Below are positions 1,270 through 10,178 of a stretch of DNA of 10,402 nt, piece after piece. This DNA is from a virus: the UHGV virus genome UHGV-0126656; one strand, 5' to 3'. Position 1 is the stretch's first letter; each line of letters opens with the position of its first letter. The notes below the pieces were generated by a model. It ran no database searches, was not told the DNA's origin, and saw only the letters and a list, made by a program, of their open reading frames with translations. Both the position numbers and the translations under genes were made by a program.

Positions 1270-1458
1270 TTATTTTGCGTACATTAAGGTAAACGCTCTT
1301 TTGGCTTTGCTTAGTTCATATTCGCGTTTTTCCATGATTGCCAACAATTCTTGCGCAGTGGCTGGCACGCCCGCTCTTATCAGCGCAATCTTAGTATCCA
1401 TAGCGCACACTCTTTCACGCGCCATATCGAAGATAATTTCCGCTCTATTGTGTGTCAT
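1270..1458 (-). CDS. Hypothetical small protein (62 aa)
   Basis: ATG at 1458 is preceded by a strong Shine-Dalgarno (AAGGAGG, 5 nt spacer). First gene of a two-gene operon ending at the 974..995 terminator. Confidence 0.55.
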   Translation of the reverse strand: MTHNRAEIIFDMARERVCAMDTKIALIRAGVPATAQELLAIMEKREYELSKAKRAFTLMYAK

Positions 1459-1883
1459 AACATCCTCCTTTTAACATTCAATCAATGCACATAACGAACA
1501 TCATGACCATCAGTAAAATCACTTCCCAGCGTTTCATTCTGCACCCAATTTCAGTCCATTTACTGCTGTATTCCTTGTTTCTGGCTTCTTTATACCCAGG
1601 TGGGCGGCGGGAAAACGTGACATAGATCCCGGTTTCGTTAATCGGTACAATTACGTCTGATTTTTGCGAAAATGGATTTATTGCAGTTGTAGTGCCAGCG
1701 GGGATTGTGAGAAAGGCCCGGGTAGGTTGCTAACTGCTTGGGCCTTTGTTTGGCGCGTGTACGTGAAAAATAGAAATTTGGCAGGGTAGTTGTAGGGATT
1801 TTTCGCGTATGGGCGTTTAAGGCGGGAAGGTTAATTCTAACGCGCGATTATAATTAAGAATAATCAATAGCTTATATTAAAGA

Positions 1884-2193: not shown

Positions 2194-4398
2194 TTAACGC
2201 CGCCGTGGTTGTAACATGCCTCCAGGTCTTTGCGACTCGCGCTGCATCAGGCGCATTGCTGTGTTTTCTATAGTCTGTTGCAACGCTTTTGAGTCGTCTT
2301 CAGTCCAGCCGTTTGTCGCCTGGATGTTGTTTGTTACGTTCAGTGTGATGCCGCCACCACTGCCAACCAGATCGCGGCCCGGTGTAACTCGTCCACCCTC
2401 GCCGGGGATCATGTACTGTTTCCCGCCAGTAGAGGTAAATAACTCAGGGACACCGTGCTCACCAACCCTGTAAAGATTGCCACCGTTAACCGCGCCGCCG
2501 TTGTAGCGACCACCGCCAAACAAGCCAGTAATGCCAGCCATCAAGGCGCTGATAGCTGACATTGCGACCATCGGGGCCGTCCCCATTGTCGCGGTAGCTG
2601 TCGCCGCTGCTGCCGGGGCCATTGATGATGCGATTGATGCGCCTGTTGCCGCTGCTGTTGCCGCTTGTCCGCTCATTGCGCTGGCGCTGGCTGCCTCGCT
2701 TAAGATCATTTGTTTGACGTATTCAGCGCCCATCTCAGCGATACTTCCCACCACTTTTCCGAGAATGGTAGTCCCGATATTGGCGAAAGCGGTTTCCAGG
2801 TTCTGCGTACCATTAAGCAGGCCGACAACGGCATTTGTAGCGCCACCACTCAGGCCATCAGCCATGTCACCAATCAGGCCATTAATCCCACCTTGCGCCC
2901 GGAATTGTTCCCACTGCGAGGCAAGCAATTCTTCTGCGTGCTGTTGTTTAAGCGCGTTTAGCGTTTCCTCGTTAATCATCTGTTTGTTGAATAGCTCATC
3001 AGCCTGTTGCATTTCAAGGGCATGGCGTTGTTTGAGCGCATCAACGGGATTAAATTGCTCATTAAGCTGTTTTGCTTTTTCTTCCAGTTCGATTTGATGC
3101 TCACGCGCGGCGTTTGTTTCGTAAATCAGGTGCGCAAGGTTTTTCATCTCACTAACCTGTTTTGCCGTTGCGTTAGCGCCCATTTCCTGAACGGCGTCCC
3201 ACATTTCAGCCTCTTTGCTACCCTCAGCAAAGCCCTGGTTAAGTCGTTCCAGTTCTGCGCGTTTCCGTTTCAGCGCTTCTTCTGCCGGATCTTTCTGCGC
3301 GCGTTTCGGTTTATTGCCACCTCCACCGCCATTGTCTTTCAGCTTAATATCAGTGGTGGCCTGCTGTGTCGGTAGCGTTGACACAAAACCCGTAGATTGA
3401 TTGTCTGGCGCTGCGCCTAAGAAGTCGGTTTGTTTGGCTTGAGCGCGGAATAAATCAAGGCCCGGCACAAACGGCTCAAAGGCTGCGGCAAGTGTCCATA
3501 ACTTATCAGCCAATGACGCAGAATCAGATTTCAGCGTTTTAAACCAGCCGGATAGCTCGCGGCAATAATCAGCCAGCGTTTTAATACCGCGACCGACCAG
3601 TTCAGTAACATGCAGCGTCTGGTCGATGGTTTCCAGTAACAGGCTAAAATTTGTTGATAGCTCTGTCATTGCCTGTTCCGTGGTTGTCGGCAGCTTGTTA
3701 AATTCTTTTTCGATTTCGCCTGATCCTTTCAGGATTGCATTTACTACATCCTCAGCCGTCAGTTTGCCATCCAACATGCGGCGACGTAGCTCACCCATTG
3801 AGATCCCCATCTGACTTGCTACGCGCCGCCATAGCTCCGGCATACCCTCCAGGATGCTGTTAAATTCCTCAGCACGGACAATACCGCCGTTAATAGATTG
3901 CCCTAACTGTCGCAAGGCGTTTGCGGCTTCTTCGGATGAACTACCACCAATACGCCCGATCTGCTGTAGTGTCTCTGTCAACTGTAAGATCTGGCCCCCG
4001 GTAGCGTTTGCATCAGACAAAGCTGAAGTAAGGCTTTCCCATAACTTAGTAGTATCCTCAATCTTCATGCCAGTTCGCTTGCTGATCTCAAGAATGCCGC
4101 TAAAATTAGCCTTAGCTTCAACCAGACTACCGGATAGCCGGGATACACGGGCGCGTAGTAGTTTTACGTTGTCCGCGATTTCAATAAAGCGTTTAGCCGC
4201 CATCATTAGCAGGCCAACGTTAACCGCCGCCGCCAGTTTGCTGATTGTCGTATTCAGTTTGTTGATTGAGTTATCAGCGCGCTTTGCGCCGCGTTCAATG
4301 CGATCGAATGCGTCGTCAGCTTGTTTCCCTGCGGTTAATAGCTTCCCTGTGCGCGCATCAACCTCATAATAAATTCTACCTACGTTTGTGTTACTCAT
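2194..4398 (-). CDS. Phage tail tape-measure-like protein (734 aa)
   Basis: Long, mostly helical protein with an N-terminal region typical of tape-measure domains (GMPELWRRVASQMGISMGELRRRMLDGKLTAEDVVNAI), a Gly run (GGGGGNKPKR), a coiled-coil middle, a C-terminal Ala/Gly/Thr/Ser-rich hydrophobic stretch and a Gly-rich tail (LYRVGEHGVPELFTSTGGKQYMIPGEGG). Classification is by resemblance; no search was run. Confidence 0.75.
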   Translation of the reverse strand: MSNTNVGRIYYEVDARTGKLLTAGKQADDAFDRIERGAKRADNSINKLNTTISKLAAAVNVGLLMMAAKRFIEIADNVKLLRARVSRLSGSLVEAKANFSGILEISKRTGMKIEDTTKLWESLTSALSDANATGGQILQLTETLQQIGRIGGSSSEEAANALRQLGQSINGGIVRAEEFNSILEGMPELWRRVASQMGISMGELRRRMLDGKLTAEDVVNAILKGSGEIEKEFNKLPTTTEQAMTELSTNFSLLLETIDQTLHVTELVGRGIKTLADYCRELSGWFKTLKSDSASLADKLWTLAAAFEPFVPGLDLFRAQAKQTDFLGAAPDNQSTGFVSTLPTQQATTDIKLKDNGGGGGNKPKRAQKDPAEEALKRKRAELERLNQGFAEGSKEAEMWDAVQEMGANATAKQVSEMKNLAHLIYETNAAREHQIELEEKAKQLNEQFNPVDALKQRHALEMQQADELFNKQMINEETLNALKQQHAEELLASQWEQFRAQGGINGLIGDMADGLSGGATNAVVGLLNGTQNLETAFANIGTTILGKVVGSIAEMGAEYVKQMILSEAASASAMSGQAATAAATGASIASSMAPAAAATATATMGTAPMVAMSAISALMAGITGLFGGGRYNGGAVNGGNLYRVGEHGVPELFTSTGGKQYMIPGEGGRVTPGRDLVGSGGGITLNVTNNIQATNGWTEDDSKALQQTIENTAMRLMQRESQRPGGMLQPRRR

Positions 4399-6345: not shown

Positions 6346-6537
6346 TCATTGGTGGCGAGCGCCTTTGTTTTTATAGAATTCCAAAATCTCAGATCGGATA
6401 AACTTAATTCGTGCACCGACCGGAGTAACCGGAACGGGCCAACCTTTAATCTTGTTAATCCAGCGGAATATAGTGCGTCGGGTAACGCCGAATAAAGCGG
6501 CTACCTCGTTCACCGTCATTAATTCGCTATCATTCAT
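6346..6537 (-). CDS. alpA: AlpA-family prophage regulatory protein / excisionase-like HTH (63 aa)
   Basis: Translation MTVNEVAALFGVTRRTIFRWI... is a typical AlpA/Xis-type helix-turn-helix. GAGGTGA Shine-Dalgarno 4 nt before the ATG. Sits where AlpA-like regulators are usually found in P4-integrase islands. Confidence 0.8.
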   Translation of the reverse strand: MNDSELMTVNEVAALFGVTRRTIFRWINKIKGWPVPVTPVGARIKFIRSEILEFYKNKGARHQ

Positions 6538-6556
6538 GTTCTCACCTCAAAAAGTA

Positions 6557-6590
6557 GCGGTGAGGAAAAATATGGGAAAACCCTCACCGC
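6557..6590 (-). promoter_or_regulatory. alpA leader stem-loop (9-bp stem) with U-run, overlapping anti-SD/SD logic
   Basis: Minus strand reads GCGGUGAGG-16 nt loop-CCUCACCGC-UACUUUUU, then the SD GAGGUGAG and AUG. The CCUCACC arm can pair with either the upstream arm or the alpA Shine-Dalgarno. Confidence 0.35.
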
Positions 6591-6729
6591 GCCCTGAATG
6601 AAATTAAAGACCAACATTACTGTTGATACTTAATATTATATTCCTCATGTCCCTGTTTCACATCTTTTACCATATAGGGAAAGGGGATATTCTGTAATGT
6701 TTACAAAACTTTTAATTAGCAAAAAATAA

Positions 6730-6758
6730 TTGCGCATCTCACGTAATACAGGGATAAT
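6730..6758 (+). promoter_or_regulatory. Candidate sigma70 promoter (TTGCGC-17 nt-GATAAT)
   Basis: -35-like TTGCGC (6730..6735) and -10 GATAAT (6753..6758) with 17 nt spacing, pointing toward the plus-strand terminator at 6825..6851. Confidence 0.3.
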
Positions 6759-6764
6759 ATTACT

Positions 6765-6851
6765 CAAGGGCTGGTAACCCTTACTCAAAATGTGATCTAT
6801 AACTACAACGATTGATTTCACTTCCCCGCTCTCTCCGGCGGGATTTTTTTT
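6765..6851 (+). ncRNA. Candidate small RNA (~85 nt), divergent from alpA
   Basis: Bounded by the candidate promoter and a strong intrinsic terminator. No ORF (ATG TGA only). Has a 5-prime stem-loop (AAGGG-CUGGUAA-CCCUU) and an AU-rich linker before the terminator. Confidence 0.3.
6825..6851 (+). terminator. Rho-independent terminator (plus strand)
   Basis: GC hairpin (CCCGC ... GCGGG, 6825..6842) followed by eight T (6844..6851). No plus-strand CDS lies upstream. Confidence 0.6.
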
Positions 6852-7971
6852 GCCTGCAATCACCACATCAAAACTAATTAAAATTAGATGCCGTTTAAAC
6901 GCAATATAACGCATTCTGACGGCCTTAATTTTTGGCAATGCATTTGCTCAGGTGTGATTAGATTGATTCGTCTGGCGTGGAATGGTGCGGCGGTAATATC
7001 AGATCTCAGCGTTCTGTGTGGCGATTCCTCAGCTCTGAGGAGTGGGCGTCCGTCATTCAGTCTCAGCACCTTGCTCAAACGAGATCGGCTGCGATGGCGT
7101 TGTAGGCCGCATTCTGTCGTTTAATGAGACGTGCCTGATTGGACAATCTGAAATCTGGTTGGTGAGACTATTCAGGCGAGACTGTTCAGCGGGGAAAGCG
7201 GCGCATGTCGATGAATCCATTCCTGGATTAATCGGCGTTGTTCCGGTGTCTGGTGAAAATTTAATGAAATCGCATCAATTATAATGCGTCTAAATCGCTC
7301 TGTGGCGACGTGAAGTTTTCAGGTAAGCAAGTGCGGTTATATGTGTTCATCGCGTTACAGGCACCATTCCGTTCGAATTTGGCACGGTCAGGATGGTTTG
7401 CGGTGGTCGGCGGCGGGGATAAACTTGCTTGAGTGGTCACCTCAGCCTGCTGTGCGTCGTGTGATGGTACTGTCTGCACCTGGCTATACGCTGCTTTGCT
7501 GCTGTTTCCTGTCTGGTCTGTATACGCGATAAAACCCATCGGCTTTACAGTGAGTGAGTTTTTTGCGCTTTGCTTTCCATTCGGTTTGCTTACTGCTGCT
7601 GTGTGTCTGTGCGGTAGCTCAGAAAGCTGTTGACGATAACCATCACTGCTAAGCCCGTCTTTTAAGCTGGCAATTGCTCGAAGCCTTCCGAAGGCCCACC
7701 AATAAGAAATCACCCTTTGAGATATACCGCGCTCCCCATGAACGAATGCCATGATGGTTTGTTGGTCTGCTGTTCAGGTTGTACGTGAGTGAATGGGCGT
7801 TTCCAGCTTGCTGGAAATGATTGCGCTAATCAGCATGGTTAATGCTCGCAACCAGCCGACCTATCAGGCGGCGAAATAATTCTTCTGTTTAACTCTAGGC
7901 GACTCTCTATGACCGACCGGGAGGCTAAAAAACTCCCGTCGCCTAGAATTCTTAATAGTAGAATTCTTACT

Positions 7972-8137: not shown

Positions 8138-8665
8138 TTATTTCATGTTGTACGGCTTGAATAATAACTGGTATTCGTTGCACTCCCTTTCTGCCGATCC
8201 TGGTATATAGCCTTCAGTACGCTCAACAAGTTTGAAGTGGTTGACCAGACGATCGAGGCATTTTTTAACCGTGTTTTTTGATAGCCTGGCTCGTTTGTCG
8301 ATTGTTCCCCTACCAACCCTGCACCATCCCAACGGTGAGTTTTTGCCAGTACCAGCGAAGTAACAAAGAGCACGTAGCACAGCCTCGTCGTTGACTGTAT
8401 GTTCTTTCTCCCATCTTTCGTACAGTTTGCGGGGCAATACTTCATCAAGTCGGTTCAATGTGTCCAGGTAGCGCAGGTTGCCACGCCAGGCTTGCTCCTG
8501 CTGTTTTGCCTCGTGATGATCTGTTTCCTCGTGATTATCTGGCGTGTGTTCTTCGTGTTTAGTCTCTTCGTTTTTGGGTGCTTTATTCCGTAACTCGTTA
8601 ATTTTATTTAAAAATTGACGAACATCATTGTTTGTTTCTTGTTCTACTGCTAGCATATCAGACAT
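8138..8665 (-). CDS. Putative iteron-binding replication initiator, winged-helix (phage O N-terminal-like), 175 aa
   Basis: The ORF track starts at 8779, but the ATG at 8663..8665 (MSDMLAVEQ...) has an AAGGAG Shine-Dalgarno 8 nt upstream and is preferred. C-terminal segment (AVLRALCYFAGTGKNSPLGWCRVGRGTIDKRARLSKNTVKKCLDRLVNHF) resembles winged-HTH replication initiator domains; acidic His/Glu-rich N-terminal region. Function inferred from fold-like motif plus the adjacent iterons. Confidence 0.5.
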   Translation of the reverse strand: MSDMLAVEQETNNDVRQFLNKINELRNKAPKNEETKHEEHTPDNHEETDHHEAKQQEQAWRGNLRYLDTLNRLDEVLPRKLYERWEKEHTVNDEAVLRALCYFAGTGKNSPLGWCRVGRGTIDKRARLSKNTVKKCLDRLVNHFKLVERTEGYIPGSAERECNEYQLLFKPYNMK

Positions 8666-8839
8666 GAGAAATTCTCCTTTAGCTTGTTTCTCATACCGCC
8701 CCCGGAATGTTGCAGCATGCCGGGGGCTTTTATTTGTGTTGATCCTATTTTCGAACTCTGGATCTTTCGTTGCAAACATGGATTTAAGTTCTTGATATTG
8801 AATAATTTATTCCACTTAATTGGAATAATGGAATAATTA

Positions 8840-8969: not shown

Positions 8970-10178
8970 TCATTCCGGTTCTAGAGGATTGCCGTTACCT
9001 GCCAATATTGAATCAATAGCGTCGGCGTAATCCTGCATCATTGCTCGCCGTTGCTTCAGGTAGGCCGCCTGGTTATAAATCGCCCTGATTCCCTTTGGAA
9101 CATGGGCCAATTGGATTTCGACCCAATCAGGGTTATACCTGCCGGATTCGTTAAGCGCCGTGCTGAATGTTGTGCGCCAGCCGTGGCCTGTAACCGTCGA
9201 TTTGAATCCGATACGCTCCAGGGCTTTAAGGATGGCACTGGCTGAAAGTGGCTTATCCATGAATCGACCAGGGAACACAAAAGCACTGTATCCGCTGCGG
9301 GTAAACTGGTCCTGTAATAGCTCGACCGCCTGCCGGGATAGCGGGACCACATGCGGGCGGCGGGCCTTCATGACTTCAGCGGGTAGGGTGATGGTTGCCG
9401 ATTCCAGATCTACCCACTCCCAGCGCATTAAACGCAGTTCTGCGGTCCTTAGGGCGCTTAATATAAGCAAACGTATTGCCGTCTGAATCTGAACGCTCCC
9501 GGCTCTCTCAAGGGCTTTGTAGAAGGCCGGGATTTCACTAATTTGCAGCCATGCGTTATGACCTGGGCGTCTGGCTTTCAATGCCGTGTCCAGATCTGCA
9601 ACCGGATTTCTGCTAACCAGTTCGGTGATAACGGCAAATTTGAAGATCTCCCCGATACGCTGGCGTAATTTCCTGGCCTGTTCCGGTGCGGTGCGCTCTT
9701 TCTTCTGAAGCAATGCCAGTACGTCACGGGCGGTTATATCAACGATTGAACGTTTTCCCAGCACGGTGTAAACATCTTTCTCTAGTGCCGATCTGACCTG
9801 CTTTGTATAGCTCTCACTCCAACCGCTCACTCTGGTAGCAAACCAGTCTTCCGCTACCGTCTTAAAACTTGCCGCCATGTTGAGCGCATCAATGGCTTTC
9901 TCCTTGCGCGCTTCTTCCATTGGGTCAATTCCCTGGGCGATGAGTAAACGGCTCTCTGTGGCGCGTTTACGTGCTTCCTTCAAGGTAATCAGCGGATATA
10001 CCCCAATAGCCTGTAACCGCTCTTTCTTGTCTATCCAGTACCGGAATCGCCAGTATTTGCTGCCATTGGGATGCACCAGCAAGAACAGGCCAGGTGTCTG
10101 TGAATCGGTGAGTTTGTAGGGCTTGTCCTTCGGCTGGGCGGCCTCTATGCCCTTTGCTGTCAGTGGTGTCTTGCTCAA
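8970..10178 (-). CDS. int: Tyrosine recombinase, P4-type phage integrase (402 aa)
   Basis: N-terminal arm-binding signature (PYKLTDSQTPGLFLLVHPNGSKYWRFRYW) and C-terminal catalytic region (HGWRTTFSTALNESG ... VEIQLAHVPKGIRAIYNQAAYLKQRRAMMQDYAD) characteristic of P4-family integrases. Start codon is TTG at 10176..10178 with a GAGGT Shine-Dalgarno 8 nt upstream. Confidence 0.9.
   Translation of the reverse strand: MSKTPLTAKGIEAAQPKDKPYKLTDSQTPGLFLLVHPNGSKYWRFRYWIDKKERLQAIGVYPLITLKEARKRATESRLLIAQGIDPMEEARKEKAIDALNMAASFKTVAEDWFATRVSGWSESYTKQVRSALEKDVYTVLGKRSIVDITARDVLALLQKKERTAPEQARKLRQRIGEIFKFAVITELVSRNPVADLDTALKARRPGHNAWLQISEIPAFYKALERAGSVQIQTAIRLLILSALRTAELRLMRWEWVDLESATITLPAEVMKARRPHVVPLSRQAVELLQDQFTRSGYSAFVFPGRFMDKPLSASAILKALERIGFKSTVTGHGWRTTFSTALNESGRYNPDWVEIQLAHVPKGIRAIYNQAAYLKQRRAMMQDYADAIDSILAGNGNPLEPE

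Follow-up and report, generated by a model that had tools for sequence, protein, structure and literature searches.

A candidate small regulatory RNA gene in prophage-like eut-operon islands of Escherichia coli and Shigella

The DNA analyzed here, UHGV virus genome UHGV-0126656 (10,402 nucleotides; "the window" hereafter means this whole stretch), is a CPZ-55-like integrative element located between eutA and eutB of E. coli. Copies approximately identical to the window (99.7%) lie between the same two genes in strains 13TMH22 and 14EC033, adjoining intZ. The credible genes of the window are encoded on the minus strand throughout:

8970-10178, minus strand: tyrosine integrase
8138-8779, minus strand: homologue of YffL
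6346-6537, minus strand: alpA-like HTH protein (Pfam HTH_17; PHROG excisionase/regulator)
2194-4398, minus strand: 734-aa protein with a tape-measure domain
elsewhere in the window, minus strand: several further small proteins

The long minus-strand operon of these elements comes in two types. In type A, which includes the window, an alpA-like HTH gene stands first and there is no HNH gene; in type B, a 131-aa HNH endonuclease (Pfam HNH_3) is encoded first or directly after a 62-aa HTH gene. Across the family, the gene set comprises a tape-measure-domain protein, an Sf6-type small-terminase-like protein and an HNH nuclease (for example, 2194-4398 of the window on the minus strand, 101-517 of L006 and 1-558 of L079; L numbers denote related loci), and some variants add a 531-aa DUF5906 protein, which we read as primase-like. 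No capsid genes were seen in the element family. Overall, the gene set resembles that of a phage satellite, unlike the P4 set. Several variants further have, on their plus strand, a type II toxin-antitoxin pair of the YafO family that sits between the integrase and the RNA cassette described below (L003, 7548-8397; L006, 4204-4683); the window has no such pair. A weak, sub-threshold Rfam match to Salmonella STnc320 at 960-1004 of the window, plus strand (25.2 bits vs 50), corresponds to a terminator-like hairpin at the 5' end of a 259-aa minus-strand ORF (194-973).

On the opposite strand to these genes, upstream of the alpA-like gene, the following features were found:

6730-6735, plus strand: -35 element TTGCGC, directly preceded by an A-rich tract (6718-6729)
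6753-6758, plus strand: -10 element GATAAT, separated from the -35 element by a 17-nt spacer
6765-6851, plus strand: predicted small RNA of ~87 nt, with both ends inferred
6766-6782, plus strand: 5' stem-loop AAGGG/CCCUU with loop CUGGUAA
6784-6796, plus strand: conserved unpaired block 1, CUCAAAAUGUGAU (CCUCAAAAUGUGAU in most alleles)
6799-6810, plus strand: conserved unpaired block 2, AUAACUACAACG
6825-6851, plus strand: intrinsic terminator, consisting of a 6-bp stem CCCGCT/GGCGGG with a 6-nt loop (6825-6842), an A, and T8 (6844-6851)
6852-6985, no strand assigned: conserved, apparently non-coding block to the right of the terminator, present in 26 distinct alleles and in all variants

The start of the RNA was placed 6-8 nt past the -10 element and its end inside the T run, and ~40-45 unpaired bases separate the 5' hairpin from the terminator. 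A preliminary description of this DNA had pointed to the promoter TTGCGC-17-GATAAT and to a hairpin-plus-T8 terminator at which no plus-strand protein gene ends, and each of these elements was recovered where it had been placed. No plus-strand ORF of at least 40 aa ends at the 6825-6851 terminator; the only small plus-strand ORFs are a 24-aa TTG ORF before the promoter (6623-6697) and a 21-aa TTG ORF running through the terminator (6812-6877). Taken as a single sequence, the promoter and terminator are no more than expected by chance. The promoter scan did not flag TTGCGC-17-GATAAT, because its -35 element matches at 3 of 6 positions only; 15 terminator-like sites were counted in the window vs 13.5 expected from shuffles; and z is -1.3 for the fold of 6765-6851. 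TTTACA-16-AAAAAT (6700-6727), a second promoter-like site, lies in a stretch without a counterpart in other variants. The RNA gene is also flanked by a perfect 10-nt inverted repeat, TTTTAATTAG / CTAATTAAAA (6710-6719 and 6874-6883), which is A+T-rich, is only partly conserved in other variants and is probably due to chance.

We next describe the distribution of the cassette. A 181-nt region is found in 188 of 5,426 complete E. coli genomes, in one copy each and at 73-100% identity. In E. coli ATCC 8739, which has an HNH-bearing variant, the position of the RNA is estimated as roughly 1,354,985-1,355,075 of NC_010468.1. An exact-pattern scan of species-representative genomes yielded true copies in E. 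coli and Shigella flexneri only, and a pattern scan of gut metagenomes yielded copies in 25 of 45 contigs among the matches listed. Phage records gave no match to the cassette; for the alpA-like protein, viral contigs contained distant matches only, none of which fits the RNA model. In every variant, the cassette and the gene that opens the long minus-strand operon point away from each other, and three variants have promoter-like sites with a TAAAAT -10 in the interval. The window and an O157:H7 variant are homologous over 6722-6974 only, with unrelated flanks on either side; thus, the promoter, the RNA, the terminator and ~130 nt to the right travel as one cassette of ~250 bp. The CPZ-55 element of K-12 MG1655 contains neither the terminator sequence nor a match to the covariance model. 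No Sakai record is found among the matches listed (60 of the 151 carrier entries), where O157:H7 is represented by two genomes, both of atypical strains; the cassette is apparently absent from O157 Sakai.

A diverged copy lies on the circular 9,003-bp record CP057168.1 (L065). This record, labeled a "plasmid" and originating from a pig-farm E. coli, carries the same kind of HTH/HNH operon, with a serine recombinase in place of the IntZ integrase, and could represent a relative of the element that is autonomous or has been excised. In L086, a natural internal deletion (~1450-1600, minus strand) leaves the -35 element of the RNA promoter fused to the terminator's 3' half, such that the RNA gene is lost and the HNH operon is intact.

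Comparison of the alleles revealed which parts of the cassette are maintained. The -10 element GATAAT is invariant in all 14 promoter alleles, with variable sequence in the spacer and upstream, and the TTG of the -35 element is kept in 14/14, always 17 nt from the -10 (as TTGCGC, TTGCAC, TTGTAT, TTGTAC, TTGCGA or TTGCAA). The 5' stem reads GAGGAU/AUCCUC, CGAGGG/CCCUCG, UGAGG/CCUCA or AAGGAU/AUCCUU in other alleles, with pairing kept, and compensatory changes occur in three of its six pairs (GC 14 / AU 8; GC 8 / AU 6; UA 8 / CG 1, the last being a weaker closing pair, left open in 14 of 23 alleles). Similarly, the terminator stem shows a compensatory change from CCCGC/GCGGG to CCAGC/GCUGG in three alleles, its loop varies, and the U tail comprises 6-9 U in all alleles and U8 in nearly all. 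Two near-invariant stretches, CUCAAAAUGUGAUC and AUAACUACAACG, lie between the hairpins; the second, block 2, is invariant except for a U to C change in the plasmid copy (AUAACCACAACG). No small plus-strand ORF is conserved across the alleles.

The covariance analysis of homologous loci that the preliminary description had proposed as a check bore out its prediction of a structured RNA: when 21 distinct alleles were aligned with MAFFT, compensatory changes were seen at 5 of the 12 pairs, and both hairpins covary. The covariation score is 0.148 compared with 0.073 +/- 0.012 for shuffles, and 0 of 500 shuffles reach it, a control that overstates the significance because the sequences are closely related. 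When the 3' partners were slid by 1-3 columns, 0-1 compensatory pairs were obtained, and a model-fitted alignment of 30 loci agrees with the MAFFT result. The slid controls, together with several independent versions of the stem, argue that the hairpin structure is real. A covariance model built from the 21 alleles matches the window at 6764-6851 with 100.5 bits. Overall, the conservation of the promoter and the covariation of both hairpins point to an independently transcribed RNA of ~85-90 nt with a poly-U end, as had been supposed. Judging from these sequence comparisons, the small prophage-like islands that make up this family in the E. coli and Shigella eut operon very likely carry, at this locus, a gene for a small regulatory RNA that annotation has missed.

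The conserved block at 6852-6985 is part of the same mobile cassette, because the homology to the O157 variant extends over it, ending at 6974. This block appears to be non-coding. The lengths of its indels are not divisible by three, it is delimited by a minus-strand terminator in six variants, its segment 6887-6976 resembles the C-terminal end of a 151-aa ORF of some variants, and inspection by eye found no convincing minus-strand promoter within it. The RNA gene is itself overlapped by a minus-strand ORF (6645-6938), annotated in some RefSeq genomes as the hypothetical protein WP_001268866.1. This ORF has no family match and its frame is disrupted by a 4-nt indel in half of the alleles; it is therefore probably a spurious call.

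Given these minus-strand neighbors, we considered that the hairpin may serve mainly as a two-way terminator, or as a cis-antisense device, for minus-strand transcripts arriving from the integrase-side genes. The distance from the ends of these genes to the hairpin is 15-35 nt in some variants, and in the O157-type variants the 151-aa minus-strand ORF, for which no other terminator was found, ends just to the right of the hairpin. On the minus strand, an A8 run precedes the hairpin; however, what follows the hairpin on that strand is GAAGUGAAAUC, with no U tract, and six variants have a separate minus-strand terminator for the upstream module, ~150 nt away. The conserved promoter, the covariation of the 5' hairpin and the invariant unpaired blocks would also be left unexplained, and we regard this explanation as very improbable.

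The sequence of block 1 is, as read in most alleles (CCUCAAAAUGUGAU), that of a putative anti-Shine-Dalgarno element. It is complementary over 13-14 nt to the Shine-Dalgarno region of the HNH gene, AUCACAUUU(U)GAGG; the target-side sequence opposite CCUCAAAAUGUGAU at the HNH ribosome-binding site is AUCACAUUUUGAGG. All 17 distinct HNH contexts examined share a start region composed of AUCACAUUU(U)GAGG, 9-11 nt, and AUG; in one of them the first A is replaced by G. In L035 and L070, block 1 and this site match perfectly over 14 nt, and in most others the match covers 13 bp with one bulged base. This site is kept despite divergence of the HNH protein to 70% identity and despite unrelated families of sequence just 5' of it. 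By our own estimate, a perfect 14-mer between ~45 unpaired bases and a 30-nt start region would occur by chance with a probability of ~5e-6. The simplest reading, which the complementarity suggests, is that the RNA represses HNH translation by covering its Shine-Dalgarno sequence.

The complementarity is not uniform across the family. The allele of L079-L081 has a UG to CA change in block 1, and its target has no compensating change; L065 (the plasmid copy) and L069 encode a different, longer HNH protein, and their genes show no such complementarity. Duplex energies computed for the whole RNA are not outliers and are uninformative, because the G+C-rich terminator arms dominate them. The HNH gene is found in 58 genomes vs 188 for the RNA, so that most copies of the RNA are without an HNH target; this may apply, as it does to the window, to ~70% of the carrier genomes. 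The window contains neither the HNH gene nor the target site, and the best match elsewhere in it has 3 mismatches, which is at chance level. A search for a helper phage through the HNH protein gave no close phage homologue, the best being at 30% identity in Caulobacter phages.

The pair of matching sites could also be read at the level of DNA, with the 14-mer CCTCAAAATGTGAT and the core binding a protein of the element (the HTH regulator, the integrase with an excisionase, or a packaging/replication protein) and with the promoter and terminator being incidental or insulating. Indeed, the two sites are direct repeats ~450 bp apart, in a cassette that sits in the control region between two gene modules, and ~130 bp of conserved non-coding DNA beside the terminator have no RNA explanation. 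Protein binding would not, however, predict compensatory changes that preserve two hairpins, nor an invariant -10 at a fixed distance from TTG, nor a U8 tail in nearly all alleles, and one copy of the repeat falls exactly on a Shine-Dalgarno sequence. We consider a DNA-level cause of the conservation improbable.

The preliminary description had further suggested that the RNA regulates the divergent alpA/tape-measure operon. For the sister elements this idea gains substance from the match to the HNH ribosome-binding site; for the window, which has no HNH gene and offers 7 bp at alpA, it is not supported. Two features of the alpA-like gene leader are relevant here:

6557-6590, minus strand: terminator-like hairpin within the alpA-like gene leader, with U5 (6549-6553) and GAGG (6545-6548) after it; fold z = -3.5
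6546-6552, minus strand: UUUUGAG at the Shine-Dalgarno sequence of the alpA-like gene, the only place in the window that matches block 1 (over 7 bp)

The window copy of block 1 has ACUC in place of CCUC. The predicted duplex with the alpA start region, at -15.0 kcal/mol, is within the window background of -12.8 +/- 3.4, and the match is not kept in other HTH-first variants; on these grounds and given its 7 bp, we rejected the alpA ribosome-binding site as a conserved target. The leader hairpin is a separate matter. The same layout, with different covarying stems, precedes the HTH gene in L065, L069, L078, L082 and L084, and from this pattern the 6557-6590 hairpin looks like a conserved leader attenuator of the operon.

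For block 2 (AUAACUACAACG), searches of the window, the related loci, the eut flanks and K-12 CPZ-55 returned only chance-level helices of 8-10 bp. This bears on an alternative in which the RNA is real and has its main job outside the element: block 2, and perhaps block 1, would pair with mRNAs of the host or of a helper phage, or sponge a host small RNA, and the HNH match would be secondary or ancestral. Block 2 is the most invariant part of the RNA and found no partner within the element, and most carriers, the window included, keep the RNA intact without the HNH target, both of which fit such a role. There are also precedents in AgvB and in SviR, the latter being reported to have separate seeds for satellite and phage targets (both RNAs are compared below). 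On the other hand, the searches of the window, related loci and eut flanks identified no target.

Comparison with known RNA families bears on the same alternative. No family of Rfam 15 was matched at threshold. The GcvB model (RF00022) scored 19.9 bits on the window (E = 0.7; threshold 42), in an alignment that rests on the terminator, and the AgvB model (RF02702) scored 22.8 bits (gathering score, 56) on the beta-type allele of L004, where the AgvB-like part consists of AUAAC-ACAAC-AUAU and the terminator. With scores so far below threshold, the RNA falls outside both the AgvB and the GcvB family. The weak AgvB match of the beta-type allele is nonetheless a point in favor of an outside role, and the fact that the window allele, scanned alone, has no Rfam match is a point against it. 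Since block 2 resembles the part of AgvB that mimics a GcvB target and pairs with the GcvB R1 seed, we tested pairing with GcvB using the K-12 sequence: the window allele reached -17.3 kcal/mol, which 73% of shuffles equaled, compared with -23.7 kcal/mol and 2% for the AgvB control. A GcvB sponge was thus rejected for the window allele. Taken together, we judge a main role outside the element to be possible, though unlikely.

Existing annotation and literature were searched as well. PGAP annotates no RNA at the locus, 11 sequence strings taken from the RNA matched none of the papers searched, and nothing relevant was found on CPZ-55 small RNAs or intZ satellites. As K-12 CPZ-55 lacks the cassette and no Sakai record is among the carriers listed, catalogues made from both strains (including Sakai EcOnc) probably do not contain it; Esr41/EcOnc14 was discarded as a candidate, being located in SpLE1 and hence at another locus. 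An antitoxin RNA of a type I toxin-antitoxin pair was likewise rejected, as there is no conserved small ORF and L086 lost the RNA gene yet keeps the operon, which argues against a toxin-antitoxin relationship.

Several known RNAs of mobile elements offer points of comparison. The c4 RNAs of P1/P7 and the CI RNA of P4 are cut from the leader of the operon that they control, in the same orientation, and keep lytic or late functions off; the complementarity of c4 includes a ribosome-binding site in its own operon. Like them, the present RNA is a short structured RNA of a mobile element with short complementarity to a site in the element's own operon. Unlike them, it has its own divergent promoter and an intrinsic terminator and shows no similarity in sequence or structure; searches for the C4/P4 CI family gave no match in the window (E <= 1) and none in L004 (E <= 5). 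The analogy with P4-type RNA-based immunity drawn in the preliminary description is therefore not borne out: the RNA is not processed from a leader, and no P4 hallmark genes are present among the window proteins scanned. In lambda OOP and P22 sar, the RNA overlaps the gene that it targets and is completely complementary to that gene. The present RNA resembles them as a small phage RNA with its own promoter and terminator, located in a control region and convergent with a neighboring gene. It differs in that its target lies ~400-450 bp away, on the other side of the promoter, with complementarity of 13-14 nt only, and it would therefore act in trans. The opposite-strand ORF that does overlap it is the one at 6645-6938, with no family match and a frame broken in half of the alleles.

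AgvB and AsxR are anti-sRNAs of EHEC lambdoid prophages (PMC4104026). As in AgvB, we find a short, prophage-borne RNA of Hfq-type shape with a C/A-rich unpaired AUAAC(N)ACAAC(R)AUAU and a terminator; unlike AgvB, its gene occupies a place other than the moron site that follows PR', and the RNA itself is longer, with a hairpin at its 5' end. In the PLE satellite of Vibrio cholerae, SviR is a trans-acting small RNA conserved across all satellite variants, which is reported to use distinct seed regions to act on the satellite's own and on phage mRNAs (bioRxiv 10.1101/2022.04.08.487710). The two are alike in being small RNAs of small integrative elements, conserved across the variants of each; they differ in bacterium and element family. 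The closest functional analogies are c4 (P1/P7), CI (P4) and SviR (Vibrio PLE). As in Hfq-type small RNAs, a conserved promoter of its own is followed by no ORF and the terminator has a long U tail; a candidate seed of 13-14 nt is found in the sister elements, the window having no such site and 7 bp at alpA. From these features, the RNA is best described as belonging to the broad class of mobile-element Hfq-type small RNAs.

We favor, at somewhat better than even confidence, a sigma-70-driven gene for an RNA of ~87 nt that base-pairs through two blocks, of which block 1 silences the HNH gene. According to this model, the sigma-70 promoter would give rise to an RNA composed of a 5' hairpin, an unpaired stretch and a terminator with U8, of Hfq-type shape and presumably dependent on Hfq. 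The cassette adjoins, in divergent orientation, the promoter region from which the long minus-strand operon of CPZ-55-like elements starts. Block 1 (CCUCAAAAUGUGAU) would pair with the HNH Shine-Dalgarno sequence and block ribosome binding, and its physiological role would be to keep the HNH gene, and probably also the genes downstream, silent while the element is quiescent; the partner of block 2 (AUAACUACAACG) may reside in the host or in a helper phage. In the window, the HNH gene appears to have been replaced by the alpA-first gene set, and this copy would therefore keep the RNA and not its in-element target.

A more speculative extension, to which we give little weight, is that the RNA is a two-seed maintenance or immunity factor of the eut-integrated satellite-like family (HTH regulator, HNH nuclease, small-terminase-like and tape-measure-like proteins), in which one seed silences the HNH packaging nuclease until induction and the other acts on a helper phage or the host. 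If true, this would make it an E. coli counterpart of SviR in Vibrio PLE.

Small RNAs of mobile elements are a known and growing class. To our knowledge, very few phage-satellite systems have a documented RNA regulator. Current annotation places a probably spurious hypothetical protein over the locus described here. If confirmed, the RNA would mean that ~3.5% of complete E. coli genomes, as well as Shigella, have a regulatory gene that is missing from their annotation, and would provide a first handle on how the HNH/terminase/tape-measure operon is controlled in the poorly understood CPZ-55-like eut elements.
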